From Phycisphaerales bacterium (GTDB lineage: Bacteria > Planctomycetota > Phycisphaerae > Phycisphaerales > UBA1924), in assembly GCA_003511945.1 (NCBI GenBank), contig DOJA01000246.1, forward strand, positions 1-38,128: a DNA stretch of 38,128 nt. Direction: 5' to 3'. Both the position numbers and the translations under genes were made by a program. Under the pieces are notes generated by a model, which worked only from the letters and a program-made list of their open reading frames with translations, did not search any database and was not told the origin of the DNA. Shown piece by piece: positions 607 to 37,407 of this stretch. Position 1 is the first letter of the stretch, and each line of letters opens with the position of its first letter.

Positions 607-860
607 TTCGCGGATTCTCCTGGGGTGCAATCGGGCTTCAGGCCGGCGGGATCGGCCTTCGGGCGGCCCGCACGGGGAGCTCGGGACGCCCATGAGACCA
701 GCATACCCCCTTTTTCTCGCATTCCGGACCTTGGGATTCTGCGCGGCAAGCGGCGTTCGAGGGTGGCATCGCCTTGACCGGGGGCGGAGTTTGGGGTCTG
801 TTGATGGTGTGCACAGGACCGCCTCCGGTACGACGGGGCGGGATACAAGGAGAGTCAGTG

Positions 861-6732: not shown

Positions 6733-7527
6733 TCAGAGTTCGGCGACGATGTAGACGATCCACGCGAAGTCGGCGTCGCCGTGGTCGCGGGGCTGGAAGT
6801 CGCCGTCGCCTTCGCCGGTCTCCTCGTCGGTGCCTTCCCAATAGACGGTGGAGCGCGCGAAGCCGGCTTCCGCCAGCAGTTCGCGCAGTTCGGGCAGGGT
6901 CCACAGGCGCCAGTGGTAGGTGAAGGCGTCGCGGATCTTCGAGCCATCGGGGAAGTGGAAGTGGATCTTGCACACCGCGCTCCCGGTGATGGGGTCGTAG
7001 GAGTGCTGGTCCCAGACATAGGTGAATCGCCCGTTGTTGATGGGGCGCTTCTCCTGCATTTCCTTGAAGGCGTCCGACCCGCCGTAGGCGTCGAGGAAGA
7101 AGAGCCCGCCCGGAGCGAGGGACTCCCGCACATGCTCGAAGTAGCGGCGCATGGTGGCGCGGTCGGTGAAGCAGTAGTAGGAGAAGTTCATCGCCAGCAC
7201 CGCGTCGACGGGCTCGCAGCGGACGGAGAGGACATTGTCGCGCAGCAGCGTGACCCGCCGGCGCGCCTCGGGCCTCAGCTTGGCGAGGTTGTGGGCGCGC
7301 CCCCAGTCGAGCGTGGGCTGGTCGAGGTCGACCCCGATGGCGCGGTTCGTGGCCCGGCGACGCACGAACTCGCAGGCGGAGTTGGCCGTGCCGCAGAAGT
7401 CCTCGCGGATGACCGAGGGGGATCGGCCGCGCAGGGAGTTGTAGGTGTCGCTGATGAAATCAATCTCCGCGTCCACCGCCTGGACGGACTCCTGGTACAG
7501 CACATGGCGGTCGGCCCGGGCGGCCAT
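6733..7527 (-). CDS. Class I SAM-dependent methyltransferase, substrate unknown.
   Basis: Lies within ORF 6733..7716. The start MAARADRHVLYQESVQ fits the usual short N-terminus of this family as I recall it. Motif I is REDFCGTANSA...GVDLD. Also contains LAMNFSYYCF and LAPGGLFFLD. The start is uncertain because no clear SD is present. Confidence 0.8.
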   Translation of the reverse strand: MAARADRHVLYQESVQAVDAEIDFISDTYNSLRGRSPSVIREDFCGTANSACEFVRRRATNRAIGVDLDQPTLDWGRAHNLAKLRPEARRRVTLLRDNVLSVRCEPVDAVLAMNFSYYCFTDRATMRRYFEHVRESLAPGGLFFLDAYGGSDAFKEMQEKRPINNGRFTYVWDQHSYDPITGSAVCKIHFHFPDGSKIRDAFTYHWRLWTLPELRELLAEAGFARSTVYWEGTDEETGEGDGDFQPRDHGDADFAWIVYIVAEL

Positions 7528-7711
7528 CGGGATGGCGCTGATGTGCCCGTTGGCGGGCTTCGTCGGTGCGCGCCCCGCGCGCCCGCTTCTTGAAGCGCCC
7601 CCCCGCGTCTTCCTTGACGATGACTCCACGGCGTTCTCCGATCGGAACTGAACCCGGATGCGCAGGACCATTTCCCCGTCGCGCGGGAGGGAGTGTATCG
7701 AATCACGGGGG

Positions 7712-7717
7712 TACACT
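7712..7717 (+). promoter_or_regulatory. -10-like hexamer TACACT, 7 nt upstream of ATG 7725 (leaderless candidate).
   Basis: The sequence reads tacact gcgcggg ATG, with no SD. Confidence 0.35.
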
Positions 7718-7724
7718 GCGCGGG

Positions 7725-8522
7725 ATGGCGCCCGATCTCGAGTGTGTCGGCCTGCGGTGGCGCGTCGAGGCGTGCGACTGGCTCGTGGGCGCGCGCACGC
7801 TGGCGCCCGGGTCGATTGACCTGCTCTACGCCGACCCGCCCTTCAACACGGGCAAGAGGCGGTCGGGCGCGTCGGGTTCGTTCGACGATTCGTGGCGCGA
7901 CGCGGGCGCGTACCTCGCGTGGCTCGAGGAGCGCCTCCGCGCGACGCTCCCCGCGCTGAAGGCGACCGGCTCCGTGCTCATCCACTGCGACTGGCGGACG
8001 AGCCACCACACCCGACTGCTCCTGGACCGCCTGCTCGGGCCGGACCGGTTCGTGAACCACCTGGTGTGGCGCTACGGGCTGGGGGGCTCGTCGGCGCGGC
8101 GCTTCGCGCGGAAGCACGACGACATCCTCTTCTACGCGATCGACCCGGAGCGGTACTGGTTCGAGCCGCCCCGCGTGGCGTCGACCAGCCGACGGATGGG
8201 CGGCGCGACCAAGAAGGCGACGGATGTGCTGGACATCCCCGCGGACGAGGTGCTGGATGTCCCCTCGATCAACAACATGGCCCGCGAGCGCACCGGGTGG
8301 CCCACGCAGAAGCCGCTGGCTCTCCTGCGGCTTCTGGTGGGCGCGTGCTGCCCGCCCGCGGGCACAGTGCTCGACCCCTGCTGCGGCTCAGGAACCACGC
8401 TGGTCGCGGCTCGCGATCTGGGACGGTCCGGGGTGGGGTTCGACCTGGACCACCGGGCGACGGAACTCGCGCGGACGCGGGTGGAGCACTTCGTCTGCAC
8501 GCGTGGCGTGCAGACGAGTTGA
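7725..8522 (+). CDS. Beta-class DNA amino-methyltransferase, probably N6-adenine; orphan.
   Basis: Lies within ORF 7566..8522. Motif IV DPPFNTG lies near the N-terminus. Motif I VLDPCCGSGTT lies near the C-terminus, giving the beta permutation. Also contains WPTQKPLALLRLLV. No endonuclease-like ORF is adjacent. Confidence 0.88.
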   Translation: MAPDLECVGLRWRVEACDWLVGARTLAPGSIDLLYADPPFNTGKRRSGASGSFDDSWRDAGAYLAWLEERLRATLPALKATGSVLIHCDWRTSHHTRLLLDRLLGPDRFVNHLVWRYGLGGSSARRFARKHDDILFYAIDPERYWFEPPRVASTSRRMGGATKKATDVLDIPADEVLDVPSINNMARERTGWPTQKPLALLRLLVGACCPPAGTVLDPCCGSGTTLVAARDLGRSGVGFDLDHRATELARTRVEHFVCTRGVQTS

Positions 8523-8681: not shown

Positions 8682-9293
8682 TCACTCCACCCGGGTGAGC
8701 TCGACCTTGACGACCTCCGCCATCGTTCCCGCGCCCTGATCGAACAGGATGCGCCACACCAGGTGATCGTTGTCGGGCTGCGCGTAGTGGAACTCGTACT
8801 TCTCGGTGTGGTTGTGCCTGGGGTCGTGAGTGGTGCCGGAAAGAACCAGGGTTCCGTCGGGCCGCGCGGGTCCCTGCCCCGTGACATAGTAAGTGCCCAC
8901 GGTGTCGTACCCGACGACCGTGAACAGGTCGCTGCGTCGGTCGAACCCCAGGATGGTGAGCCCCTCGAACGGCTGTCCCATCAAGTGGCCGGCGTTGCGG
9001 ATCTCAAGGAACCGCCCGCCGAGGATCATGCGGGTTGTGGAGGTCCCCTCCGAAACATCGGGCGGTTGACCGGGCATCATCGACACCGTGACCCGGGACT
9101 TCCACTCACCCGCCATGCGTTCCAGCACCTTGTGCTCGGGGCCGGGCTGGGCGAGGGCCATCATCTGTTCTGCAATCTTGGCCACTTCTTCGGGGGTCAT
9201 CTTCTTCTCCGGCGGGGTCGAGCGCGCCAGGGCGAGCCCGGCGGCGCAAGCGAGGGCGGCGACACTCAGGACAGCAACACGGGTGGACTTCAC
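8682..9293 (-). CDS. DUF1579-family secreted protein.
   Basis: GTG start (complement of 9291-9293) after AAGGAGAAG, overlapping the upstream stop as GTGA. The signal is VKSTRVAVLSVAALACAAGLALA. Contains LERMAGEWKS...MILGGRFLE...GFD..., typical of DUF1579. Confidence 0.85.
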   Translation of the reverse strand: MKSTRVAVLSVAALACAAGLALARSTPPEKKMTPEEVAKIAEQMMALAQPGPEHKVLERMAGEWKSRVTVSMMPGQPPDVSEGTSTTRMILGGRFLEIRNAGHLMGQPFEGLTILGFDRRSDLFTVVGYDTVGTYYVTGQGPARPDGTLVLSGTTHDPRHNHTEKYEFHYAQPDNDHLVWRILFDQGAGTMAEVVKVELTRVE

Positions 9294-9826
9294 GGGGCTT
9301 CTCCTTGCTCTCGGAGCTCGCCCGGGACCACCCCGGGGTGAGCCATTGGTCGATCGTCGGATCGGTCGCTCACTTCTGCGGACGCTTCGGCGCCGGCGAG
9401 GAGCGTCGGGAGCGTGCGCGCCAGCATGCCCCGCCACCCCCCGCGCAGCATCGACGCAAGCCGTTCGCCGCCGGGTCCATCAAAGCGCGTGTGCTCGAGC
9501 ACGAGGAGCGTTCCGGCTCGCTCGGGCGCGAGCGTCCACTCGACCCGGGTTGGGGCGGGGAATCGAGTCCACGACCACGAGTCCTTCCACGACCACACCA
9601 TGCGACGCGGGGCTTCGATGTCGAGCACCTTGCACTCGACCACGCCGCCCCAGTCGGTCATGTCGGGCGGGACTTCGCACCAGAACCGGAAGGGGCGCCC
9701 GAGGATCGGCTGGAAGTCGGTGGACATCTCGATCCAGCGCTCGATGAGCGCCGGGTCCGTGAGCGCGCGCCACACGCGATCGACCGAGTGGGGGTACGAG
9801 GCCTCCAGCCGCACGCGGGCGTTCAC
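9290..9826 (-). CDS. SRPBCC / AHSA1 (Aha1-like) domain protein.
   Basis: Begins (M)NARVRLEASYPHSVDRVWRALTDPALIERW, an AHSA1-type SRPBCC N-terminus. The GTG start overlaps the arsR stop as GTGA. Confidence 0.85.
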   Translation of the reverse strand: MNARVRLEASYPHSVDRVWRALTDPALIERWIEMSTDFQPILGRPFRFWCEVPPDMTDWGGVVECKVLDIEAPRRMVWSWKDSWSWTRFPAPTRVEWTLAPERAGTLLVLEHTRFDGPGGERLASMLRGGWRGMLARTLPTLLAGAEASAEVSDRSDDRPMAHPGVVPGELREQGEAP

Positions 9827-10368: not shown

Positions 10369-11010
10369 TCACTTGCGGGTGTAGGCGATCTCCATGTGCT
10401 TGAACATCTTGCCGTCGGGGCCGGGCATCCACATCTCCATGGAGCGGGTCTTGGCGTCGATGACCCGGGTGATGGACTTCACATCGACCTCCGAGCCGAC
10501 CATCGGGTTGAAGGTGCGCCCGGCGGTGGTGATCGACTTCCCGTCGGGCGTGCCGGTCCCCCACTGCTCCATGAGGCCGGTGCCGAAGTTGTCGAACCAA
10601 AGAGAGAAGAACTGCTGCTTCTGGTTGTCGAAGCCCATGATGGCCATGCCCTCGAACTCCATGATCTGGCCACCCATGTCCCACGAGCCGTTGACCTTCT
10701 CGACGAGGTAGCGCCCGCCCATGATCAGTTTGGAGCTGGCGGTCGCCTTGGACTCCTCGACGGGGGCATCGGGGGCCATCCACGATTTCACCACCAGGTT
10801 CCAATCACCCGCCCACTGCTCGAGGTGCTTGTGGGCCGCTCCGGGGGTGGCGAGCTTCATCATCGCCTCCATCATGGCGGCCTCGTCCGGCGCCCCGCCC
10901 TTGGGGGCCTCCTTCTTCTCCGGTCCGGCGCCGATGGCGAGCGCCCCGACCAGCGCGCCCAGCGCGAGACATCCGACGCCGAACGCGATGCGGTTGATCT
11001 TCTGACTCAT
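10369..11010 (-). CDS. DUF1579-family secreted protein (paralog).
   Basis: Lies within ORF 10369..11280. ATG 11010 follows AAGGAG. The signal is MSQKINRIAFGVGCLALGALVGALAIGA. Contains LEQWAGDWN...LIMGGRYLVE...MGFDN. Confidence 0.85.
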   Translation of the reverse strand: MSQKINRIAFGVGCLALGALVGALAIGAGPEKKEAPKGGAPDEAAMMEAMMKLATPGAAHKHLEQWAGDWNLVVKSWMAPDAPVEESKATASSKLIMGGRYLVEKVNGSWDMGGQIMEFEGMAIMGFDNQKQQFFSLWFDNFGTGLMEQWGTGTPDGKSITTAGRTFNPMVGSEVDVKSITRVIDAKTRSMEMWMPGPDGKMFKHMEIAYTRK

Positions 11011-11159
11011 GGGTCTTGGCTCCTTGCACAAAGCGTGTTCTTGGGTCCGGCGACGGGGGACTTCGCCGGGCCGTCCGGTCCGAGGGCACGGCTCCGCCGA
11101 TCCCTTTGGACGATGATGCACCACCGCCGCGCGGTCCGTCGGCGGCGAACGATCCCAAA

Positions 11160-11188
11160 CAAATACCACACACCAATGCCTATGTCCA
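11160..11188 (-). promoter_or_regulatory. Weak promoter candidate for the DUF1579 paralog.
   Basis: The minus strand reads TGGACA, 17 nt, then TATTTG, in a low-GC pocket about 150 nt upstream of the ATG. Confidence 0.25.
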
Positions 11189-11293
11189 GTAAGAACAGGC
11201 GCTGCGCTGCGCGACTGATCCGAGTTGGGAAACTGCCCCACGCTCGGTGCCGGGCTGAACCGCTCACGGAATGAACCCATGAGGGTCGGGTCA

Positions 11294-15600: not shown

Positions 15601-15603
15601 TGA

Positions 15604-15709
15604 GTCGGCGATGACCTACTTTCCCGCAAGGCAGTATCATCGGCGGCCTGGGCTTAACTGCTGTGTTCGGGATGGGAACAGGTGTTGCCCCAGACCTATG
15701 GTCACCGAC
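15604..15709 (-). rRNA. rrf: 5S rRNA.
   Basis: The minus strand reads GTCGGTGACCATAGG...CCCATCCCGAACACAGCAGTTAAGCC...GCCGATGATACTG...GGGAAAGTAGGTCATCGCCGAC. It aligns by eye to E. coli 5S, including the CCGAAC and GCCGATGGTA regions, and the termini pair as helix I. Ends are accurate to about +/-5 nt. Confidence 0.85.
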
Positions 15710-15971
15710 AAAGCCCGGTCCGTCCGCGAGGACGAACCGGACGAGGAGGGTGGCCTCTTCGTCCGGACAGTTCTGCGATTGCTGATGAAACAGGGTTGGA
15801 TGGACGGAGTTGATGATGTTGATGAGTCGTACGCGCCCGTGCGGGGTTGAAGCCGCCCGGGCCGTCAATGTGAAGCGTGCGTTGATGAATGATCGTCGTA
15901 AGAACATGAGCTTGCACTCGCTCCGTGGCCCGCCGGGCGTCGTGCTGGAACACGACGGCGGAGGGTTGGAG

Positions 15972-18731
<2,760 letters not shown>

Positions 18732-19103: not shown

Positions 19104-19131
19104 AGTGTACTGATCGCCAAGGATCTGTCAA
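19104..19131 (-). promoter_or_regulatory. Candidate promoter for the 23S-5S unit.
   Basis: The minus strand reads TTGACA (19126-19131), a 16-nt spacer, then TACACT (19104-19109), about 370 nt upstream of the mature 23S 5-prime end. Confidence 0.4.
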
Positions 19132-19196: not shown

Positions 19197-21326
19197 TCAG
19201 AACCCGCCCGGCTTGGGAAGCCCGCCCGGTTGGCCGGGCTGCCCGCCGCCCAATGGGTTACCGCCAAGGGGGTTACCGCCCAGGGGGCTGGGTCCGCCGC
19301 CGGCGGGGTCGCCGCCGCCCCCGGGGGCTGGAGGGCCGCCCCAGGGCGAGGAGCCGGGCAGACGAGCCACGCCCCGCTCTGCCGAGCGGGCCGACTTGGC
19401 GAGCGCCTCACGGAGGGCGGCGGTCGACGGGTCGTTCGAAGGGACGCGGAGGAGGATCCGATCAGCCCCCTGCGCGAAGGCCGCCTGGGCGATGGCCTTG
19501 TCCTTCGACCACGCGGAGGCCACCCCGAGAAGAAAGGTGTCCATCTGCAACGGACGATTGCGCTCGACCGGTGTCTGCTGGGCGATCGAGCGCCGGCCGG
19601 ACTCGTCCGTCGTGATCTCGTAGGTCACCAGCCCTTCCGGGAGCGTGATGGTGCCCGCGGCGGTGTCGCCCGGCTCAAGGCCCACCTCCACCCGGCGCCA
19701 GTACCCGTAATAGAACTCGAAGAGTTCGACCGACGCCCGGGCGGGCGAGGCCAGGCCCGTGGTGCTGGGCTCGCTGGCGGCCTGCAGGATGAGCACGCGC
19801 TCTTCGGGCAGAACGATCGGGTCGGACCATTCCGAGAACGCCCCGTCGATGGCGATGTTCTGCGCCAGGGACTTCTGCTCGTCCACCAGCCCGTCGGTCT
19901 GCCCGAAGAGCGGGTTCGTGACGCGGACCCGAGCCCGGTAGCGGTAGGTCGCGCCGGGGCGGGCGGTCAGATCGTGGGTCCAGAGGGTGAACTGGCCCGC
20001 GTCTGGGTGCGACACCGAGTGGAGCGGTTCTGCGAACGAGGCCGCCGCCAGGGGCTGACCGAACCGGGTGAACCCCAGCACGCGCAGGGCCTCGACTTGC
20101 TTGGCCTCGTCGGCTTCCGCCTTGCGCAGAGCTTCCTGGAGGGGGCCGGTGTCCCGTTCACGGGGCTGTTTGGGCTCTTCTGGTCCGCCGCCCCCGCCGC
20201 CTCCGCCGATCTGGGCGAGGTAGTTTCGCTCGAGGCGGGGCCAGACAAACTCGTCGGGCGCGAGGGGCGTGGCGTCGCGAGAGGAGCGGCGTTCCGGGGG
20301 GGGGGGCGGAGCCCCGCGATCGGCGGGAGGGAGCTTGAGCTGGCGCCGGAGGCGGTCGACTTCGGACTCGTACCCCTTCAGAACGCGCAGCGCGGCTTCC
20401 AGTTGGCGCTGCTTGTCGGCGTTCTCAGACTCGATGCCCAGCGCCTTGGCCGGGAGTTCCCAGGGGTCGCCCGAGACCGTGGGGTAGAAGGGCGGGCGGC
20501 GGATGAACTCGCGGGCGGTTCGCTCCTGCTCGACGATCCCGCGGAGCGAGGAAGGGCCCAGATCGGGGGCGACCAGCGGGGCCCGGGTGTCCGGAGCGCC
20601 GGGCATGAGCGCCAGGGGCGACTCTTCGCTCCAGGAGCCGTCGGCCAGGCGCTCCTGACGGAACCACTGGACATCGAGGATCTCAACCAGCGACTTCCAC
20701 AGCGCCTCGGGGATGGCTCTGCTGCCTTCGGGGGCCGGGGCGCCAAGGATCTCGCGGAGTTTGGCGGCGTCGAACCCCGACTGCACCGAGACGAATCGCA
20801 GATCAAACGGCTGCGCTGGCGGGAGCAGCTTGGCCAGCTCCGGACCGATCTCCGCCACGGTCAACGGATCGATGGCGGCGCCGAACGGAGCCGCCACGGG
20901 ACGGTCGGGCGCGGGGGGCTCGAAGAGCGCGAAGGGGGCGGTGGCGGCCTCGATGGCCTGGATCTCGCCCCCGGCGCTGGACGATCCCAGGAACGCAGGA
21001 GTTCCCAGACTGGCGAGCGTCCGGGGCGAGCCCTTCGACTGCAGGGCCGCGAGGAACTGATCGCGGGCGCTGGGTATGGCGTCGGTGTCGGGCACGCCCG
21101 CGACGACGGCGGTGGATTCCAACGCCGCCCGCTTGACCTCGGCCATGGAGCGCAGCGCCGCGTCGGCCTGATCGAGCGGGACATCGCGCCCCCCGACCTT
21201 GACCGAGCGCGCTCCGCCCAGCAGCCCCAGTTGCATCGCCAGCACAGCGACGAAGAAGAGTCCGAAGAAAAGAAGGACGCCCTTCTCCACATGGCGCTCG
21301 ATGATGGTCACACCCTTGATCTTCAT
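19197..21326 (-). CDS. Large bitopic membrane protein (709 aa), unknown function; third gene of the pilM-led operon.
   Basis: N-terminal TM GVLLFFGLFFVAVLAMQLGLLGG. Coiled-coil-like segment KQRQLEAALRVLKGYESEVDRLRRQLK. Contains a G8 run. The beta-rich C-terminal half contains ATYRYRARVRVTNPLFG. The Gly/Pro tail is PLGGNPLGGNPLGGGQPGQPGG. GC3 is high. Confidence 0.8.
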   Translation of the reverse strand: MKIKGVTIIERHVEKGVLLFFGLFFVAVLAMQLGLLGGARSVKVGGRDVPLDQADAALRSMAEVKRAALESTAVVAGVPDTDAIPSARDQFLAALQSKGSPRTLASLGTPAFLGSSSAGGEIQAIEAATAPFALFEPPAPDRPVAAPFGAAIDPLTVAEIGPELAKLLPPAQPFDLRFVSVQSGFDAAKLREILGAPAPEGSRAIPEALWKSLVEILDVQWFRQERLADGSWSEESPLALMPGAPDTRAPLVAPDLGPSSLRGIVEQERTAREFIRRPPFYPTVSGDPWELPAKALGIESENADKQRQLEAALRVLKGYESEVDRLRRQLKLPPADRGAPPPPPERRSSRDATPLAPDEFVWPRLERNYLAQIGGGGGGGGPEEPKQPRERDTGPLQEALRKAEADEAKQVEALRVLGFTRFGQPLAAASFAEPLHSVSHPDAGQFTLWTHDLTARPGATYRYRARVRVTNPLFGQTDGLVDEQKSLAQNIAIDGAFSEWSDPIVLPEERVLILQAASEPSTTGLASPARASVELFEFYYGYWRRVEVGLEPGDTAAGTITLPEGLVTYEITTDESGRRSIAQQTPVERNRPLQMDTFLLGVASAWSKDKAIAQAAFAQGADRILLRVPSNDPSTAALREALAKSARSAERGVARLPGSSPWGGPPAPGGGGDPAGGGPSPLGGNPLGGNPLGGGQPGQPGGLPKPGGF

Positions 21327-21369
21327 GGTCGCGTTCTCACTGCCCGCGGGGATTGATCTGGCGTTCGGC

Positions 21370-22755
21370 TCAGTTCGACTCGGACTCTTCGCTCGGCGGC
21401 TCCTCGGACCCGGCCTCGCCCGGGGGCGCCGGGGGGGGCGCGTCGGGCGGAACGCCCAGCGCCTCGCGGACCTTGGCGGGCATCAGCGGCCTGAGCCACG
21501 CGCGGAGCCAGGCGGACTCCACCCGCAGGGACACGCGCACCAGGTGATCGGCGCCGAGGTCGTACCCTAGCCGTAGGTCGGGGAGGGGGTCGTAGTCGGC
21601 GATGTCCACGCCCACGACCGTCATGAAATTGACGGACGAGAAGGCGTCCAGGATCTTCGGCACATCCTTGCTGGCGGCGATGAGCACCACATCCGCGTAG
21701 CGAAGGTCGTAGATGGGGTTAGGGGACGCGGGCCAGGACGCGCGCCCGGTGTGCGCCACCGCGAAGGTCTTGGGCAGTTCGGTGCGCTCATCGTCGCTCT
21801 CGGGGGGCGTCGCGGGGCCTTCGCCGGTCGGGGTTCCAGCGGATGTTGGGTCCGCGCCCGCCCCCGGGGCCGGCTTTCCGCTGGGTCCGACCATGATCGA
21901 TTCCAGGATCTTCACGGGCGCGCGGAAGACATCCAGCCGGCTGCCGGAGCCGTCGGAGTTCGCCAGCAGCGCCGCCTTGATGAGGTCCTCGTTGACCCAG
22001 TAGATCATCTGCTGGTCCCAGGCGGTCTCCAGCGGCAGGACCGTGGAGGGCGGCCAGGGCTTCACATTCGAGAACACGCTCGGTGTGGCGTAGAAGGCGG
22101 TCCCCGCGGATGAAGAGCGGTAGATGTCCAGCCGGCGCTGGGCCAGCGAATCCGTGAGGCGGGCCTCCTCGTCCGCGGTCAGCTTCTGGTCCGAGCGCCC
22201 GGCGGTGATCCGGGCCACTTCGTCGGTGCGGAACTTCTCAAGCGCCGTCCGGACCGATTCCTCGGAGGGCGGGCTCCCGGCGTGGTGCGCCTTGAGCAGG
22301 TCGGCGTGCGCGCGGGGCCACGCCTGCACGAACTGATCGAGCAGGCGGAAACTGGTGCTCAAGTCGGGGGGCGCCGGGAAGAGCCGGTCGGCGCCGTCGC
22401 CCAGGATCGTCCGCTTGCCCCTGGAGTTGCGCTCGATGGCGTCGGCGCGGACGCGCCCGACATCATCGACGATCCGGGTCAGGAGCCCCTTGACCCTCTC
22501 CGTGGTCGCCGCGTTCGGTGGGGCCGTCACATCGACGACCGGGGGCTTCCCCGCAAGGAACGGTTCGACGCGGTAGGTCACATCCAGCCCGGCGATGGCC
22601 GAGGCCTGCTGCGACACCCGCGCCTCGGCGGCCTTGTGCACCTTGGACCCCCAGCCCGTGCTGAAGAAGATCATCAGAGGGGCCGCGATGATCGCCGTCG
22701 CCAGCGCGATGACGACGATCAGGTTTGCCTTCAGCCAGGGAACGAACTTTTTCAC
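21370..22755 (-). CDS. Bitopic membrane protein (461 aa), unknown function, in the PilO position.
   Basis: The GTG start overlaps the pilM-fusion stop as GTGA (22752-22755). N-terminal TM LIVVIALATAIIAAPLMIFF. Acidic Pro-rich C-terminus. I recognise no family motif. Confidence 0.8.
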   Translation of the reverse strand: MKKFVPWLKANLIVVIALATAIIAAPLMIFFSTGWGSKVHKAAEARVSQQASAIAGLDVTYRVEPFLAGKPPVVDVTAPPNAATTERVKGLLTRIVDDVGRVRADAIERNSRGKRTILGDGADRLFPAPPDLSTSFRLLDQFVQAWPRAHADLLKAHHAGSPPSEESVRTALEKFRTDEVARITAGRSDQKLTADEEARLTDSLAQRRLDIYRSSSAGTAFYATPSVFSNVKPWPPSTVLPLETAWDQQMIYWVNEDLIKAALLANSDGSGSRLDVFRAPVKILESIMVGPSGKPAPGAGADPTSAGTPTGEGPATPPESDDERTELPKTFAVAHTGRASWPASPNPIYDLRYADVVLIAASKDVPKILDAFSSVNFMTVVGVDIADYDPLPDLRLGYDLGADHLVRVSLRVESAWLRAWLRPLMPAKVREALGVPPDAPPPAPPGEAGSEEPPSEESESN

Positions 22756-24893
22756 GCGTCCGGCTCCTGCGTTACAGCGGATGGGTCGGGGACCGCCTCG
22801 GTAGCGGGGTCGCGGACCTGGGCGTACCAGATCACCGAATACCGATAGACCGGCCCCTCGAGCGGCTTGCGGATGAGTCGCTCGGGGAACGGCGCGAGGG
22901 ACTCGAGCGAGGACTGCCCGCGCGAGTCACCCGATCCTCGTTCAGGGGGCGAGCCGGGGGGGGAGGGGCGCGAAGGGCTGCCGCCGCCCAGAGGAATTCC
23001 GCCGCCGGTCCCGCCCAGGGGGATTCCCCCGTCATCGTCGGGCCTGGGGCGTCCCCCGAACCCGCCCGGTCGGCCCCCAGGGGCGGATGGAGGGGGAGGC
23101 GGAGGACGCCGACCCCCCCCCGTCGGGGCGGTCGGGGTGGGACCGGGGGGCGCCACAATCGTGTCGATGCGCACTGCGGCAGGCCCGGGGATGGCTTCCA
23201 GGGTGTAGGGGATCCCCATTCGCGTCGCGTTTGATCTCAGCCAGGCGAGCACGGTGTCGTTGGCGAAGGCCTGTCGGTCGGGGTGGTTGGAGTCGAACAC
23301 CAGCGTCATGCGCACCGCGCCCCGCGGGCCGGCCTTCAGATCGGCTGCCCCGGATTCCGGCGTGGTGGGCGCGGGGGAGTCCGACCCACCCGATCCGGCA
23401 GCGGTCTGCGCGACGAGCGGGGATTCGGGCGCGAGGTACTCGGTGTCGAGCGACTTGATCTCGACCGCGTGGGTGTCGTCGGGCTTTCCCGGCGAACGGA
23501 AGACGCGGGCGGCGCTCAGCATGCGGTCCACATCCTCCAGCAACGAGGTGTACAGCCCGCGCCCGTCGGTCAGGGCCAGCAGGTTCTGCGCCATCATGCC
23601 TGGCTGGGCGGCGGCCGATGCTTCCTGCCACTCGGACTTGAGGCGGTTCCCCAGGGAGATGGTCTCGTTGATGGGGCGCTGGATCGAGTTGTCGGCCCGG
23701 GCCCGCGCCATGGCCGCGTTATCGAGGAAGGGGCGCAGGAACGAGACGCCCCCGGCAGCGATCCCAAGACCGGCGGCGGTCAGCAGCCACGGGGTCTTGC
23801 GCTTCCACATCGCCTTGCGCACCACCGAGACGGGCATCAGGTTGGCGTTGATGAAGTTCAGACCCAGCCCCTGCAGGGCCATGCCGTAGGCGGTGGCGAG
23901 GGTCGGAGTGGCGGCCTCGAAATCGGCGGCGGCGGAGCCCTCGACGCTGAGGCGCTTGAACTGCTCGAGCCGGAAGACCTCCATCTGGAGTTGCTGGCTG
24001 AGGATCTTGCGGAGCCCCAGAAGTTTGAAGGTGGCGCCGACCCCGATCAGCCGCTGGATGTTCGACTCCGGGTGGGTCTCCTGGAAGTAGGAGATCGAAC
24101 GCTGGATGTCCTGCACCAGCTCGGAGAGGACGGGCTTCATGGCCTGGAAGATGTGGCGCTTGTACTTGGAGGTCTCGGCCTCGCGCTTGAGCTTTTCCGC
24201 CTTGCCGTAGGCCAGTTTGAAGGTTTCTTCGAGCGTCTGGGTGAAGTTGTGGCCGCCCAGGGGGAAGGTGCGGATCCAGACCTTGCCGTGGTCGGTGATG
24301 ATGAGGTCGGTCGCGGTGGTGCCGATGTCGAGGATGACCGTGCCGGGGGACCTGGGGGTGAAGCCCAGGTCGTAGGCGATGGCGTTGTAGACCGCGACGG
24401 GGCTGAGGGAGAAGATGTCGGGCACCAGCCCGACTTCCTCGTAGACCGCCAGGCGTTCGGCGATGCGCTCCTTGGTGCAGGCGAAGATGCCGACCTCGAC
24501 ATCCGGCGAATCCTCGCTCTGGAAGGTCTGATAGTCCCACTCGACCTCTTCGATCGGGAAGGGGATCTGCTGGACCGCCTCGAAGCGGACGAGGTTGGCG
24601 ACGCCCTTGGGCTCGACCGGGGGCAGCTTCGCGAAGCGGGCGAAGGTGCTGTGGCCGGGGAGCGAGACGGCGATGGCCGCCCCCCGCATGGCGTCGCGGT
24701 ACTGGGACATCAGCGCGCCCAGGGCGACGCGGGTGGCGTCGTCACGGTCGATGTCGGGGGTGGACAGGACCTTCTTGTGCGGGATGACCACGAAGTCGGC
24801 GACCCGGAGAGAATCCGCGTCCTTCTCGAGCTTCAGGGCCTTGATGGCCCCGGCCCCGACTTCGATACCCCAGCAGACATTCGAGGATGGCAT
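22752..24893 (-). CDS. pilM: PilM-like actin-fold ATPase fused to a PilN-like TM segment and a long periplasmic, Pro/Gly-rich extension (713 aa).
   Basis: GAGGAG lies 6 nt before the ATG. The PilM/FtsA-like N-terminal domain contains WGIEVGAGAIKALKL...ILDIGTTATDLII...FPLGGHNFTQ...IGVGATFKLLGL. This is followed by INANLMPVSVVRK (compare PilN INLLP) and the TM WLLTAAGLGIAAGGV. After that comes about 330 aa including GGIPLGGTGGGIPLGGG. Confidence 0.85.
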   Translation of the reverse strand: MPSSNVCWGIEVGAGAIKALKLEKDADSLRVADFVVIPHKKVLSTPDIDRDDATRVALGALMSQYRDAMRGAAIAVSLPGHSTFARFAKLPPVEPKGVANLVRFEAVQQIPFPIEEVEWDYQTFQSEDSPDVEVGIFACTKERIAERLAVYEEVGLVPDIFSLSPVAVYNAIAYDLGFTPRSPGTVILDIGTTATDLIITDHGKVWIRTFPLGGHNFTQTLEETFKLAYGKAEKLKREAETSKYKRHIFQAMKPVLSELVQDIQRSISYFQETHPESNIQRLIGVGATFKLLGLRKILSQQLQMEVFRLEQFKRLSVEGSAAADFEAATPTLATAYGMALQGLGLNFINANLMPVSVVRKAMWKRKTPWLLTAAGLGIAAGGVSFLRPFLDNAAMARARADNSIQRPINETISLGNRLKSEWQEASAAAQPGMMAQNLLALTDGRGLYTSLLEDVDRMLSAARVFRSPGKPDDTHAVEIKSLDTEYLAPESPLVAQTAAGSGGSDSPAPTTPESGAADLKAGPRGAVRMTLVFDSNHPDRQAFANDTVLAWLRSNATRMGIPYTLEAIPGPAAVRIDTIVAPPGPTPTAPTGGGRRPPPPPPSAPGGRPGGFGGRPRPDDDGGIPLGGTGGGIPLGGGSPSRPSPPGSPPERGSGDSRGQSSLESLAPFPERLIRKPLEGPVYRYSVIWYAQVRDPATEAVPDPSAVTQEPDA

Positions 24894-25046
24894 TCGGACT
24901 CCTCAGGATCGGCGGACGCTCGAAGGGGCCGATCGCCCGGGTCGAGTTCGGGACGCCCGGGACAGTCGGACCACCGGGTCGGCAGCACCGGACGACGGCG
25001 CCGGGGCGGTCATGCTACCGCAAGCGAGAGCGCGCCCACCCGACGC

Positions 25047-25131
25047 TGCCCCCCCGGAACTCCCCCCGGAACGCCCCCCGGAACGCCCCCCTGTACGCCC
25101 CCCGGAACGCCCCCGGTACTCCCACTGGGTA
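25047..25131. repeat. Tandem array of about 7 units of a 12-mer CGCCCCCCGGAA (G5-7 tracts on the minus strand).
   Basis: Units lie at 25047-59, 25060-71, 25072-83, 25084-95, 25096-107, 25108-18 and 25119-31, in the divergent pilM/rpsA intergenic region. Confidence 0.9.
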
Positions 25132-25341
25132 CGGACCCTTCGGCGCGCAACGGGAGGCCTCGGTCGGTACGCGGGGGGCTCGGGGGCGGTTCGGGTCGTT
25201 CCTCGATACCCGGGGACCGAACGCCCACGGGTCTGTACACTGAGCGGTTCGGGATCGGCGGCGGACGCGCTGGTGGGCGCCCGACGAGCCGTCGATCGGT
25301 GGCGGGGCGCTGCGGCGCCGGAAATCATCAGCGGATTGGGC

Positions 25342-26772
25342 ATGAACGACATCCAAGACCCGTCGCGCGCCGGGCACGAGCCCGCGGCGCCCAGTGAATC
25401 GACCCGTCACTCGACCTCGGGCGAGATGACCCTGTCCGCCGATGTCATGGCGGAGGCGGACGCGGCGCTGCGCACGGCGGCGTCGAGCGGGAAGGGGTCC
25501 GGCCCGTCCCCGCACCACCACGAGAAGCCCAAGCCATCGGAACTGGCCAAGGCCCACGCCGCCATGGAGCCCCGCGCGATCCGAGGCCCCCGCGTCGTGC
25601 AGGGCGGGCGCGAGCACCGCACGGGCAGCGTGGTGTCGGTCGGGCCGACGGACATTTTCATCGAGTTCGGCCCCAAGGAGCTGGGCGTCATCTCGCGCCA
25701 GCAGTTCACCGACGCCGACCTGCCCAAGGTGGGCGAGCCGTTTGAGGTCGTGGTCGACCGGTTCGACTCGCAGGAGTCGCTGTTCCTGTGCTCGCGCCCC
25801 GGCTCGGTGCAGAAGGCCGACTGGGAAATGCTCGAGCCGGGCCAGGTCGTCGAGGCCCGCGTCACCGGAGTGAACAAGGGCGGCCTGGAACTGGAGGTCG
25901 CCCACCATCGCGCCTTCATGCCCGCCAGCATGGTGGACACGCGCCGGATCGAGGACCTCTCGATCTTCGTGGGCGAGAAGCTGAAGTGTCAGGTGACCCG
26001 CGTCGACCGCACGGGCAAGGGGAACATCACCCTCAGCCGTCGCGAGATCGTGGGCGAGGAGCGGAAGGAGATCCTCAAGTCCCTCAAGGAGTCGCTGAAG
26101 GAGGGCGAGGTCGTCGACGGCGTGGTCAAGAAGATCATGCCCTTCGGCGCGTTCGTGGACATCGGGGGCATCGACGGGCTGCTGCACATCTCCGACCTGA
26201 GCCACGACCGCGTGAACAAGGTCGAGGATGTGGTCAAGGAGGGCGACAAGGTCCGCGTGAAGGTGCTGAAGCTCGACTGGGCCGCCCGGCGCCACTCGCT
26301 GGGGCTGAAGCAGCTCCAGGAGGACCCCTTCCTGGCGGCCACCAAGGATGTGGTCGAGGGGGCCGTGCTCGCGGGGCGCGTAACCAAGCTGACCGAGTTC
26401 GGGTGCTTTGTTGAGATCGCGCCGGGGCTCGAAGGGCTGGTCCACATCAGCGAACTCGCGTGGAAGCGCGTCATGCGCACGAGCGACGAGGTGCAGCCCA
26501 ACAAGGTCGTCAAGGTCAAGGTGCTCAAGGTCGACCCGGACTCGCGGAAGATCTCGCTGAGCATCAAGCAGACCACCGAGGCGCCCCAGATGGACGCCGG
26601 GCGCGGGCGGCGGAAGACCGGCGACGAGGACACCCGCAAGCCCGAGGACATCCTGAAGGAAACCCCGGCGCTGCGTCGTCTGCGCGAGCAGTCCAAGCAG
26701 AAGATCAAGAGCGGGCTGAAGTCCGGGCTTGGGGAGGTCGGCGGGCTCGGGCTGGGCGACCTGCGGCTGTAG
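25342..26772 (+). CDS. rpsA: 30S ribosomal protein S1-type protein with four S1 domains.
   Basis: Lies within ORF 24595..26772. Four S1 OB-fold repeats are visible, for example GEVVDGVVKKIMPFGAFVDIGGIDGLLHISDLS and GAVLAGRVTKLTEFGCFVEIAPGLEGLVHISELA. The start is uncertain; ATG 25342 was chosen, the SD is weak, and there is an N-terminal extension of about 95 aa. Confidence 0.82.
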   Translation: MNDIQDPSRAGHEPAAPSESTRHSTSGEMTLSADVMAEADAALRTAASSGKGSGPSPHHHEKPKPSELAKAHAAMEPRAIRGPRVVQGGREHRTGSVVSVGPTDIFIEFGPKELGVISRQQFTDADLPKVGEPFEVVVDRFDSQESLFLCSRPGSVQKADWEMLEPGQVVEARVTGVNKGGLELEVAHHRAFMPASMVDTRRIEDLSIFVGEKLKCQVTRVDRTGKGNITLSRREIVGEERKEILKSLKESLKEGEVVDGVVKKIMPFGAFVDIGGIDGLLHISDLSHDRVNKVEDVVKEGDKVRVKVLKLDWAARRHSLGLKQLQEDPFLAATKDVVEGAVLAGRVTKLTEFGCFVEIAPGLEGLVHISELAWKRVMRTSDEVQPNKVVKVKVLKVDPDSRKISLSIKQTTEAPQMDAGRGRRKTGDEDTRKPEDILKETPALRRLREQSKQKIKSGLKSGLGEVGGLGLGDLRL

Positions 26773-36113: not shown

Positions 36114-36755
36114 TCAGGCCTCCTCGGCCTTCACGATCTGCCACTCCTCGATCTCGATCGGCGCCTGGCGCCCGAAGATCGTCACCAGCACGCGGACCAG
36201 GCCCTTGTCGGGGAGCAGCTCGTCCACCGTGCCCTCGTAGCCCTCGAATGGCCCTTCCTTGATCGTGACGGGCTCCCCCTTCTGGAACACCATCTTGATC
36301 TCGGGCAGTTCCTCGGGCTTGCGGCTGTCCAGCAGCATCTTCTCGATCTCGTGCGGCGCCAGGGGGGTCGGACGACCGGTCGCGCCGACGAAGTCGCCCA
36401 CGCCCGTCGTCTCCTTGATGAGGAAGAAGACATCCTGCGGGATGCGCCCGTCGTCCTCGAGCTTCATCTCGACGAACACATAGCCGGGGTAGAGCTTGGT
36501 CTCGGTGATCTTCTGCTTGCCGCCCTTCACCGTCTTGGTCTTCTCGGTGGGGACGAGGATGCGGTTGACCAGGTGCTTGAGCGCCTCGATCTCGATCTTG
36601 CGCAGCAGCGTCTCGCGGACATAGTCCTCCTTGTTGGAGGCGACGCGCAGCACGAACCAGTTCATCCCCGGCGTGACGATCAGGTCGTCGTGCGCCAGCT
36701 TGTCGGTGACCTCGGTCGTCGGGGCGGTGTCGGTGGGCTTGGTGGCTTCGGTCAT
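36114..36755 (-). CDS. nusG: Transcription termination/antitermination factor NusG.
   Basis: The NGN domain contains WFVLRVASNKE...LYPGYVFVEM. The KOW domain contains GEPVTIKEGPFEGYEGTV. Confidence 0.95.
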   Translation of the reverse strand: MTEATKPTDTAPTTEVTDKLAHDDLIVTPGMNWFVLRVASNKEDYVRETLLRKIEIEALKHLVNRILVPTEKTKTVKGGKQKITETKLYPGYVFVEMKLEDDGRIPQDVFFLIKETTGVGDFVGATGRPTPLAPHEIEKMLLDSRKPEELPEIKMVFQKGEPVTIKEGPFEGYEGTVDELLPDKGLVRVLVTIFGRQAPIEIEEWQIVKAEEA

Positions 36756-36812
36756 GTCGCCGGCCTCGTGGGTGCGGAGTTGAGTTGGAGAAGGGCGGAC
36801 GCCCCGGGAGGA

Positions 36813-37247
36813 TCAGCCCCCCGAGTCCAGCACGCCCACCGAACGGAAGAACGACGAGAACGCCAGGTCCACCAGGAAGAGCGCCGCCGCCAGCAGCACC
36901 GAGGTGCCGATGACGACCCAGGTCGAGCCCACGACCTCCTTCTTGCTCGACCAGTTCACCTTCTTCATCTCCCCCTCGGTGGCGATGAAGAACTCACCCG
37001 TGCGGGGGTTCGCGTACGCCACCCAGTACGCCAGGGCCGCCCCGATGATGATCAGGGTGAAGGCGCCGATGCCCTGGATCACCGCGGGCTCGATCGTGTA
37101 CGCGCCCGAGGCGTCGCGGGGGGGCTGGATCCGTTGCAACTGGCCCGCGAGCCACGCGGCGCCCCAGCCGAACAGCGTCATGATGCCCAGCAGGGTCATC
37201 ATCCGGGTCCAGTAGCCCTGACCCTGTTTGTAGATGCCGAACGACAT
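36813..37247 (-). CDS. secE: Preprotein translocase subunit SecE (3-TM form).
   Basis: Lies within ORF 36813..37334, whose tracked N-terminus overlaps the tRNA. ATG 37247. Contains the conserved EMKKVNWSSKKEVVGST followed by a TM. Sits between tRNA-Trp and nusG. Confidence 0.85.
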   Translation of the reverse strand: MSFGIYKQGQGYWTRMMTLLGIMTLFGWGAAWLAGQLQRIQPPRDASGAYTIEPAVIQGIGAFTLIIIGAALAYWVAYANPRTGEFFIATEGEMKKVNWSSKKEVVGSTWVVIGTSVLLAAALFLVDLAFSSFFRSVGVLDSGG

Positions 37248-37307
37248 GGGCCGGTTCCTGTCTGCCGCGGGGACGGGCGTCCCCTGCGGGGGTGGGTTGA
37301 TGTTCAA

Positions 37308-37380
37308 CACGCCGGGAGGGAATCGAACCCGCAACCTGCGGATTTGGAATCCGCTGCTCTACCAGTTGAGCTACCGGCGT
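37308..37380 (-). tRNA. tRNA-Trp (anticodon CCA); CCA end not encoded.
   Basis: The minus strand folds as ACGCCGG TA GCTC AACTGGT AGAGC A GCGGA TTCCAAA TCCGC AGGTT GCGGG TTCGATT CCCTC CCGGCGT G. The cloverleaf has one C-U mismatch in the T stem. The tuf/rpmG-trnW-secE context is classical. Confidence 0.9.
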
Positions 37381-37407
37381 AGAAGATTCGCGGCGTTGCC
37401 GCGGCTT

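Follow-up and report, generated by a model that had tools for sequence, protein, structure and literature searches.

A three-gene operon on the reverse strand of the 38,128-nt contig DOJA01000246.1 of a Phycisphaerales bacterium (assembly GCA_003511945.1) was analyzed; the entire stretch is called the window below. [quoted passage not shown] That the three genes form a PilMNO-type module can be held with high confidence, and the chances that this module serves a pilus-like type IV filament machine are about even. The genes are as follows (window coordinates; minus sign, reverse strand).

22752-24893 (-): gene 1, open reading frame (ORF) including the stop codon, 713 amino acids (aa), ATG start; predicted PilM-PilN fusion protein
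21370-22755 (-): gene 2, ORF of 461 aa, GTG start; bitopic protein with a predicted PilO/Amuc_1100 fold
19197-21326 (-): gene 3, ORF of 709 aa, ATG start; large bitopic protein not assigned to a family

The G+C content at third codon positions (GC3) was of the coding type, 0.86 to 0.91, in all three genes, and the long overlapping ORFs of other frames had no such GC3. The GCG-TGA stop of gene 1 lies over the GTG-A start of gene 2, giving a 4-nt overlap (GTGA); the spacer between genes 2 and 3 is 43 nt long. A Shine-Dalgarno sequence, GAGGAG, is located upstream of the gene 1 ATG.

The product of gene 1 is divided as follows.

23859-24893 (-): residues 1-345, predicted cytoplasmic actin-fold PilM domain
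23832-23855 (-): residues 347-354, FINANLMP, putative PilN-type N-terminal peptide fused in cis
23736-23792 (-): residues 368-386, probable transmembrane (TM) helix, Ala/Gly-rich
22755-23735 (-): residues 387-713, predicted periplasmic region of about 327 residues with a Gly/Pro-rich disordered insert

The first domain was matched by Pfam PilM_2 (PF11104) over residues 9-341, at an E value of 1e-40 and 140.2 bits (cut-off, 27) and along profile positions 1-338 of 340. TIGR01175 pilM matched residues 5-342 with 152.8 bits, above its cut-off of 133, and this cut-off was also passed by all five full-length orthologues tested (136-163 bits). A profile of 74 gene 1 members aligned with the solved PilM proteins at E values from 5.5e-37 to 6e-23, including those of Myxococcus xanthus (5.5e-37), Thermus thermophilus (6.8e-27), and Pseudomonas aeruginosa (2.4e-24). 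The matches of this profile to EutJ (3e-6) and FtsA (0.0084) were far weaker. Membership in the FtsA family failed, as TIGR01174 gave a partial match of 24.5 bits over residues 132-241 against a cut-off of 175.85, and the orthologues reached 28.9-33.6 bits. These scores clearly indicate a PilM and not an FtsA. In public annotation, gene 1 orthologues are named 'type IV pilus assembly protein PilM'. The PilM domain shares 63% mean identity with those of 73 orthologues, and the residues D189, G191, G213, G214, and G284/G286, at nucleotide-binding-type positions, are invariant in the orthologue alignment.

The PilM domain is followed by a short peptide that resembles the N terminus of PilN. In a pairwise alignment, LN-FINANLMP of gene 1 falls on SSGMARINLLP of 5eou, an engineered chimera of P. 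aeruginosa PilM and PilN residues 1-12. Because this chimera carries the first 12 PilN residues on PilM, FINANLMP is considered a PilN docking peptide. The motif N-L-[MV]-P was present in 73 of 74 gene 1 orthologues, with N351, L352, and P354 invariant or nearly so. The TM segment at residues 368-386 has a higher hydropathy than any other window in the protein (Kyte-Doolittle 19-residue mean, 1.49; orthologue median, 1.64) and is preceded by a basic stretch, RKAMWKRK.

The periplasmic region had only 21% mean identity across the order, with a Gly/Pro peak around residues 592-631, and would contain a PilN-like core. The PilN family (PF05137) had no gene 1 match at E ≤ 1 in Pfam or NCBIfam, and the comparison of the gene 1 profile with Escherichia coli HofN gave a probability of 1.1%. 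No mutual profile similarity was detected by hhalign among this region, gene 2, and gene 3 (all probabilities ≤0.2%); a PilN/PilO-type paralogy between genes 1 and 2 was undetectable by this profile-profile comparison. Gly/Pro-rich disordered stretches are present in both gene 1 (residues ~580-713, 22755-23150, minus strand) and gene 3 (residues 662-709, 19200-19343, minus strand), with up to 65-72% Gly+Pro per 40 residues. The two share G-x-P-L-G-G repeats (GIPLGG twice in gene 1 and GNPLGG in gene 3), and the exact motif is rare in the orthologues (5 of 74 for gene 1 and 9 of 76 for gene 3).

Judged by these matches, gene 1 is a natural PilM-PilN fusion, which gives it a GspL-like architecture. 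The original prediction, made from the sequence alone, had proposed this fusion and this architecture, and the pilM cut-off and the alignment with 5eou bear it out; the layout that it described, three genes of the above sizes and spacing that adjoin 23S-5S rRNA genes, was likewise recovered from the ORFs, the junctions, and Rfam. A natural fusion of the PilM-PilN type is also found in the mannose-sensitive hemagglutinin (MSHA) pilus system, in which MshI is followed by the genes of the PilO-like MshJ and the PilP-like MshK. If MshI is rightly regarded as such a fusion, the arrangement is precedented in pilus systems. In contrast to the operon described here, the MSHA genes are located in a full pilus locus with secretin, ATPase, and pilins, and the MshI-type NCBIfam models had no gene 1 match at E ≤ 1.

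The NCBIfam model Amuc_1101_fam (NF045709) scored higher than pilM for each protein, with 188.6 bits for gene 1 and 184-215 bits for five orthologues. The match extends beyond the PilM domain to about residue 464, through the motif and the TM region. When the post-PilM region was searched alone, it matched only Amuc_1101_fam, collinearly at model positions ~345-466, in four of five orthologues and with weak E values of 1.4e-4 to 0.02. On these scores, gene 1 is a relative of the Amuc_1101 family and not a member of it. Only Phycisphaerales-type fusions were among the matches listed in the gene 1 homologue search, and so it is the NCBIfam model alone that provides the bridge to other PVC lineages.

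Two parts of the gene 2 product are of importance.

22663-22722 (-): residues 12-31, predicted TM helix, N-in; hydropathy 2.83, MKK N terminus
21457-21711 (-): residues 349-433, conserved C-terminal α/β core

The gene 2 protein was modeled with AlphaFold from an 11-sequence alignment, with a mean predicted local distance difference test score (pLDDT) of 70 and values of ~90 in the helical and C-terminal parts. The model has an N-terminal TM helix (the helix at residues 12-54 covers the TM segment), long helices, and the C-terminal α/β core, a build that agrees with the N-in topology, helical stalk, and ferredoxin-like core of the PilO/GspM family (PF04350). This core is a strand-helix-strand-strand-helix unit with a pLDDT of 83-93, and its mean identity across the order is 42%. 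When the model was compared with 350,542 PDB chains by Foldseek, the 14 best matches were all PilO or Amuc_1100. PilO 2rjz was matched at an E value of 3.9e-4 and a probability of 1.0, over 75 aligned columns with a root mean square deviation (rmsd) of 3.2 Å. The other PilO chains among the best matches were 5uvr and 3jc8_Oa, the latter taken from the 3jc8 pilus machine of M. xanthus. Amuc_1100 structures (6lad, 6kny, and 6laf) were matched with probabilities of 0.82-0.97 and E values of 5e-3 to 3e-2. The matches ranked after the top 14 were unrelated phage proteins with probabilities ≤0.38. The PilO resemblance would lie on the core at residues 349-433.

The global superposition of the gene 2 model on Amuc_1100 was poor (rmsd, 14-17 Å over ~290 columns; target-normalized TM-score, 0.39-0.47). 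Since the match also covers a small part of a large protein, it is treated as fold-level evidence only. At that level, the model provides good evidence, not proof of homology, for a PilO/Amuc_1100 fold. No meaningful match was obtained with Pfam and NCBIfam for gene 2 or with Pfam for 79 members of its family, in which V-ATPase_su_f appeared as noise in 8 of 79. Profiles of 11 to 79 gene 2 members matched nothing among PDB sequences, and the comparison with E. coli HofO and GspM gave probabilities ≤0.2%. Residues 1-11 (22723-22755, minus strand) form a conserved cytoplasmic peptide, MKK..PWLK.N, among close relatives.

The product of gene 3 was modeled by AlphaFold from 20 sequences with a pLDDT of 76, and the following parts were distinguished.

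21213-21326 (-): residues 1-38, conserved cytoplasmic peptide MK.KG....E.H.EK, then a predicted TM helix, hydropathy 2.52
20427-20939 (-): residues 130-300, α/β domain not assigned to a fold family; pLDDT mostly 84-97, ~73 at residues 291-300
20079-20423 (-): residues 302-416, two long coiled-coil-type helices (302-331 and 393-416) with a Gly-rich disordered insert between them
19446-19994 (-): residues 445-627, all-β, 12 strands; pLDDT averaged by block mostly 89-97, dipping to 72-87

In the N-terminal peptide (residues 1-15, 21282-21326; pattern MK.KG[IV]…E.H.EK), M1, K4, G5, and E10 are invariant, and K2, I6, H12, and K15 are at least 90% conserved. Both gene 2 and gene 3 are predicted to be bitopic with the N terminus inside, because each has one strongly hydrophobic N-terminal segment behind Lys-rich residues, and their N-terminal peptides may bind a partner in the cytoplasm, for example the PilM domain. 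The α/β domain of gene 3 contains the conserved motifs QPFD, WW(R), PGR, and RPxFYxxIxGxxWxxP. The all-β region probably consists of two immunoglobulin (Ig)-like sandwiches in the model and is followed at the C-terminal end by one helix and a disordered Gly/Pro tail.

Searches with gene 3 against Pfam, NCBIfam, and PDB sequences returned only coiled-coil noise from the 302-416 region, and gene 3 profiles likewise found only coiled-coil proteins among PDB sequences. Pfam on 20 family members gave DivIC in 2 of 20 at an E value of 0.11, which is noise, and the profile comparison with E. coli HofP and GspC gave probabilities ≤0.3%. Foldseek of the whole model against the PDB found only antibody Fab chains (E ~3e-3; probability ≤0.5), and the fold search against a viral library found nothing. 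Because the fold search gave only generic Ig-like matches, the PilP/GspC-like role proposed for gene 3 is drawn from the position of the gene, the N-in bitopic topology, and the β-sandwich content. The family is abundant, with 3169 clusters (50% identity) at E ≤ 1e-3 among 1.84 billion representatives. The 150 matches listed were all full length (625-774 aa), and none of them was a distant relative with known domains.

Related loci were retrieved with gene 3 patterns, one genome per GTDB species; gene 3 is thus present by construction, and the presence of genes 1 and 2 is independent. The confirmed relatives comprised 170 species-level genomes, 80 of which were kept. The labels of these 80 were nearly all Phycisphaerales, Phycisphaeraceae, Phycisphaerae, or generic Planctomycetota, with two Planctomycetaceae and one Leptolyngbya. 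The order and orientation of genes 1, 2, and 3 were kept in all 80 species loci, wherever the contig allows, and the 4-nt overlap of genes 1 and 2 was retained in most. The most divergent gene 2 and gene 3 homologues found had the identical arrangement. The recurrence of the same order in every related locus fetched indicates that the trio is more than chance. The three genes are inseparable across the Phycisphaerales.

The downstream side of the operon is constant as well. In the window, the following features are found there.

19104-19131 (-): putative σ70-type promoter TTGACA-16-TACACT, 66 nt past the gene 3 stop and ~375 nt ahead of the 23S 5' end
15971-18729 (-): 23S rRNA (Rfam, 2524 bits)
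15603-15709 (-): 5S rRNA (Rfam, 84 bits)

The two rRNA genes are on the strand of the operon, with 467 nt between the gene 3 stop and the 5' end of 23S. The 23S gene followed gene 3 on the same strand in 80 of 80 loci with enough downstream DNA, and it is unusual for a protein-coding operon to keep such a place, directly upstream of 23S, throughout an order. The window has no 16S gene, so the rRNA operon is split. Many contigs of metagenome-assembled genomes terminate inside the 23S-5S rRNA downstream of gene 3. The promoter sequence matches 10 of 12 consensus positions (0.0 in shuffled sequences) and probably drives 23S-5S; comparable σ70-type promoters were present in 54 of 77 orthologous gene 3-23S spacers. 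No terminator-like hairpin was found between gene 3 and this promoter, and the operon transcript may read through into the rRNA precursor.

On the upstream side, the neighbors differ by subclade. Divergent rpsA and argS are found in the clade of the window, and a co-directional Memo-like gene (PF01875) replaces the divergent rpsA in 31 species loci (e.g., L018, L020, and L088). The latter is located directly before gene 1, ~0.5 kb upstream, and could be in the same transcription unit as gene 1 in those lineages.

The layout of the operon resembles the type IVa PilM-PilN-PilO-PilP systems of P. aeruginosa, M. xanthus, and T. thermophilus in several respects. The order is M, N, O, and then a third periplasmic partner; gene 1 passes the PilM cut-off and carries the putative PilN docking peptide; gene 2 has the predicted PilO fold and topology; and all proteins are predicted to be anchored in the inner membrane with periplasmic C-terminal parts. 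Unlike in these systems, PilM and PilN form one chain, genes 2 and 3 (461 and 709 aa) are far larger than PilO (~200 aa) and PilP (~180 aa) and have no sequence-level similarity to them, and the gene 3 product is a TM-anchored multidomain protein and not a lipoprotein. The 23S rRNA is located where pilQ would be, and pilB/C/T and pilins are absent from the flanks of ~80 species.

The closest likeness is to Amuc_1098-1102 (MUL2) of A. muciniphila, which also belongs to the PVC superphylum and has a PilM-like gene followed by a PilO-fold gene. Gene 1 and its orthologues score higher on the Amuc_1101 model than on pilM, and Amuc_1100 structures are among the best Foldseek matches of the gene 2 model. 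In Akkermansia, the PilM-like Amuc_1101 clusters with Amuc_1100, Amuc_1099, the pilin-like Amuc_1102, and the PilQ secretin Amuc_1098 (PMC5332112, PMC4960237, PMC13174399). In contrast, neither a secretin nor a pilin-like gene is found beside genes 1-3, and genes 2 and 3 are much larger and had no NCBIfam match, so that no Amuc_1100- or Amuc_1099-type family was recovered.

In the alignment or cage module proposed here, the periplasmic part of gene 1 would pair with gene 2, as PilN does with PilO, and gene 3, as the third gene, would take the PilP/GspC place and reach from the inner membrane toward the wall and outer membrane. This reach would be extended by additional helices and flexible Gly/Pro linkers, so that the complex could span the envelope. 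The complex would ring a machine whose ATPase, platform, pilins, and outer-membrane channel would be encoded elsewhere in the genome. Most likely, this machine would produce the fimbriae that Phycisphaeraceae show in culture, or it would be a related device for secretion or uptake. A type IV filament machine is favored because the closest relative, Amuc_1101/1100, is encoded together with a secretin and a pilin-like protein and because cultured Phycisphaeraceae bear fimbriae (and lack crateriform structures; PMC8882080, Table 1).

Partner genes were searched for in the window and in flanks of up to 10 kb around the operon (less at contig ends) at 84 loci of ~80 species, 1.35 Mb in total. In the 38-kb window, none of the remaining GC3-supported ORFs that were scanned encodes a secretin, PilB/T, PilC, or pilin. 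Motif scans of the flanks for T2SE-type Walker A, prepilin N termini, and secretin signatures found nothing, nor did tblastn with E. coli GspD, GspE, GspF, GspO, and HofQ. With GspG, tblastn recovered one prepilin-type gene, at locus L034 (182-661, minus strand; sequence …RRAFTLVEILIVVLILGILAAIIVP…), which is divergent from the gene 1 orthologue. A broadened prepilin pattern, with no Gly required at position -1, found no flank gene besides this one. As the sole pilin-like gene beside the operon in ~80 species, it is probably incidental. The recurrent neighbors were Memo-like, UDG, epimerase, CusF, S1, ArgRS, DinB, and NAD synthase genes. A complete type IV pilus or type II secretion locus, taken as a co-located ATPase, platform, peptidase, pilins, and secretin, was found neither in the window nor at the 84 loci. 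In planctomycete genomes, functionally related genes are commonly reported to be scattered, and the absence of pilus neighbors therefore says little. The literature had nothing usable on type IV pilus or type II secretion genes in Phycisphaerae genomes, nor on PilM-like genes in PVC essential-gene studies.

These results extend the absence of pilus core genes, noted in the original prediction for the window, to the flanks of ~80 relatives. Orthologous operons contiguous with pilB, pilC, and pilQ, which that prediction had named as evidence against itself, did not occur among the ~80 loci. Its two unrecognizable downstream proteins remain so at the sequence level (Pfam, NCBIfam, and PDB profiles), and the 709-aa protein is still unmatched; for the 461-aa protein, the description gives way to the predicted PilO/Amuc_1100 fold. 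The other evidence that it had named against itself, a match of the downstream proteins to PilO, PilP, or PilQ, was thus obtained in part, at the fold level and for gene 2, with no match for gene 3. Because the fold of gene 2 matches PilO, the operon is pulled back toward a divergent PilMNO(P)-type module.

Several observations weigh against an alignment module of a type IV filament machine. Gene 1 reaches ~190 bits on the Amuc_1101 equivalog, over model positions ~1-466 of 608, and thereby falls far short of the cut-off of 650. At the sequence level, even profiles of 76-79 members showed no resemblance of genes 2 and 3 to PilO, PilP, GspM, GspC, or the Amuc families. The PilO match spans only ~75 residues of the 461-aa gene 2 protein, with a target-normalized TM-score of 0.41-0.51, and the fold search with gene 3 gave generic Ig-like matches only. 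No secretin, PilB/T-GspE ATPase, PilC/GspF, prepilin peptidase, or (locus L034 aside) pilin was found in the window or the flanks of ~80 species, a result that covers the window and these flanks. The constant neighbors are housekeeping genes (23S-5S, with rpsA and argS or the Memo-like gene), where an accessory pilus gene set would be unexpected. Finally, an orphan pilMNO operon in Helicobacter pylori serves another machine, the flagellar motor (PMC10823254).

The H. pylori case suggests a different use of the genes, in which an orphan PilM/N/O-type module was co-opted as a flagellar motor cage and gene 3 is a lineage-specific periplasmic cage or spoke component. By analogy, this is conceivable but unlikely. 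The pilMNO operon of H. pylori occurs without type IV pili or other pilus genes, its products form the motor cage, and it is syntenic with the housekeeping genes miaB-lpxJ across the Campylobacterota (PMC10823254). The operon described here is arranged in an analogous way, as an orphan among housekeeping neighbors with no pilus genes within up to 10 kb in ~80 species, and the host is flagellated in both cases; motility is seen in most Phycisphaeraceae in culture, and there is a report of a single polar flagellum (PMC8882080, PMC10945688). In contrast to the fused M-N protein and very large partners described here, the three proteins of H. pylori are small and separate, and a gene 3-like gene is lacking. 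Searches of the flanks with 18 flagellar and chemotaxis proteins of E. coli gave no match, whereas ArgS, the positive control, was picked up in 12 sources at ~43% identity. The absence of flagellar or chemotaxis genes from every flank is a weak objection, as the H. pylori operon is likewise located away from flagellar genes. Akkermansia is not known to have flagella. Gene 1 is closest to its PilM-like protein, whose module is found beside genes for a secretin and a pilin-like protein (PMC13174399), which argues against a cage. Poriferisphaera corsica, which would speak against a cage if it carries the operon, was not observed to be motile (PMC8882080).

A type II secretion system (T2SS) would have the same general build. 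GspL has an actin-like domain, a TM segment, and a periplasmic domain; GspM is a small bitopic protein with a PilO fold; and the β-sandwich of GspC contacts the secretin. From this general knowledge of the T2SS, genes 1, 2, and 3 map one to one on GspL, GspM, and GspC, since all three are predicted bitopic inner-membrane proteins with an actin-like first member, a PilO-fold partner, and a β-sandwich third protein. They could then export, for example, polysaccharide-degrading enzymes, with the other gsp genes dispersed; the Phycisphaerae encode many carbohydrate-active enzymes with signal peptides that are predicted to be exported (PMC11131199). The GspL model (TIGR01709; cut-off, 65 bits) gave a faint match in one orthologue, the best, with 16.5 bits and an E value of 0.0035, but none at E ≤ 1 in the window protein, which is of the PilM type and not the GspL family and retains the putative PilN docking peptide. 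The flanks have no GspD, GspE, GspF, or GspO, no GspG apart from the L034 prepilin, and no gspD-K nearby. Profile comparisons with E. coli GspC/L/M were at noise level, and all probabilities with HofN/O/P and GspC/L/M were ≤1.2%. A T2SS is thus likewise unlikely.

It is quite improbable that the pair of PilM fusion and PilO-fold protein forms, with gene 3, a PVC trans-envelope machine that is uncoupled from pilus biogenesis and has no dedicated secretin or pilins. The job of such a machine would be FtsZ/FtsA-independent division or the import of macromolecules into the periplasm, and its expression would be tied to growth through the 23S-5S linkage. Reportedly, the Akkermansia Amuc_1101 locus has a role in mucin import, which macromolecule import would parallel. 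Surface attachment is given as the role of that locus in PMC13174399.

Repurposing of the PilM-based trans-envelope complex as an actin-like scaffold for division, polar organization, or envelope growth in a lineage without FtsZ, FtsA, and FtsB was also considered. The original prediction had speculated on division or polar organization for the case of a planctomycete host, and the host is indeed a planctomycete. In Phycisphaerae, division is by binary fission, and ftsZ, ftsB, and mostly ftsA are missing, with the rest of the division and cell wall (dcw) genes retained (PMC12673574, PMC12283558, PMC8882080). At least 170 species-level genomes of the order were found to carry the operon, its PilM domain is unusually well conserved, and it lies in a housekeeping context, always abutting rRNA genes with no terminator between. 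This scaffold is nevertheless very unlikely, as there is no positive evidence for it, gene 1 scores as PilM and not FtsA, dcw, mre, and fts genes are absent from the recurrent neighbors, and the gene 3 pattern scan returned only Phycisphaerales, Phycisphaerae, Phycisphaeraceae, Planctomycetaceae, and Planctomycetota labels and one Leptolyngbya.

The remainder of the window contains GC3-supported ORFs for a heme peroxidase, two aldehyde dehydrogenases, methyltransferases, two DUF1579 proteins, a β-lactamase-family protein, a hydrolase, ribosomal protein S1, a DHODH-like protein, ArgRS, a STAS protein, a β-eliminating lyase, a DUF1028-TPR protein, and NusG. Three further GC3-supported ORFs had no Pfam match, and tRNA-Trp is also present. 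The 595-aa protein at 774-2561 (+) is a full-length match to the 'animal haem peroxidase' family (E 4.6e-154). The two DUF1579 proteins are paralogous and close together, at 8682-9437 (-) and 10369-11280 (-); just before them are a DNA N6/N4 methylase at 7566-8522 (+) and a second methyltransferase at 6733-7716 (-). NusG and tRNA-Trp at the far end of the window, 36114-37381 (-), are the usual start of the secE-nusG ribosomal-protein region. The neighborhood is housekeeping in character, because it comprises this region, rpsA, argS, and the rRNA genes. A 149-aa ORF just upstream of gene 1, 24903-25352 (-), was tried as pilin-like and rejected; its composition is that of a wrong frame, rich in Arg/Pro/Gly, and it failed the GC3 filter.

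In kind, much of the alignment or cage module is known from PilM-PilN-type fusions (GspL and MshI), orphan pilMNO operons (H. pylori), and PVC pairs of a PilM-like and a PilO-fold protein (Akkermansia). What is new is the order-wide three-gene unit, the expanded PilO-fold gene 2 family, the gene 3 family, the bridge to Amuc_1100/1101 by fold and model, and the fixed site upstream of 23S-5S. Nothing so far marks the operon as anything beyond a divergent alignment complex whose partners are dispersed. If it is simply a pilus alignment complex, its value lies in better annotation and in an example of module enlargement. Two large and abundant 'hypothetical' families gain structural and genomic context, gene 2 as a greatly expanded protein of predicted PilO/Amuc_1100 fold and gene 3, with over 3000 clusters at 50% identity, as its obligate partner. 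An orphan, rRNA-adjacent operon in a lineage without FtsZ or FtsA is also a concrete three-gene target for four roles, those of pilus, secretion, flagellar cage, and division. The much-studied Amuc_1100/1101 of Akkermansia are tied by these results to a module found across free-living Planctomycetota, which points to a PVC-specific variant of the alignment complex.

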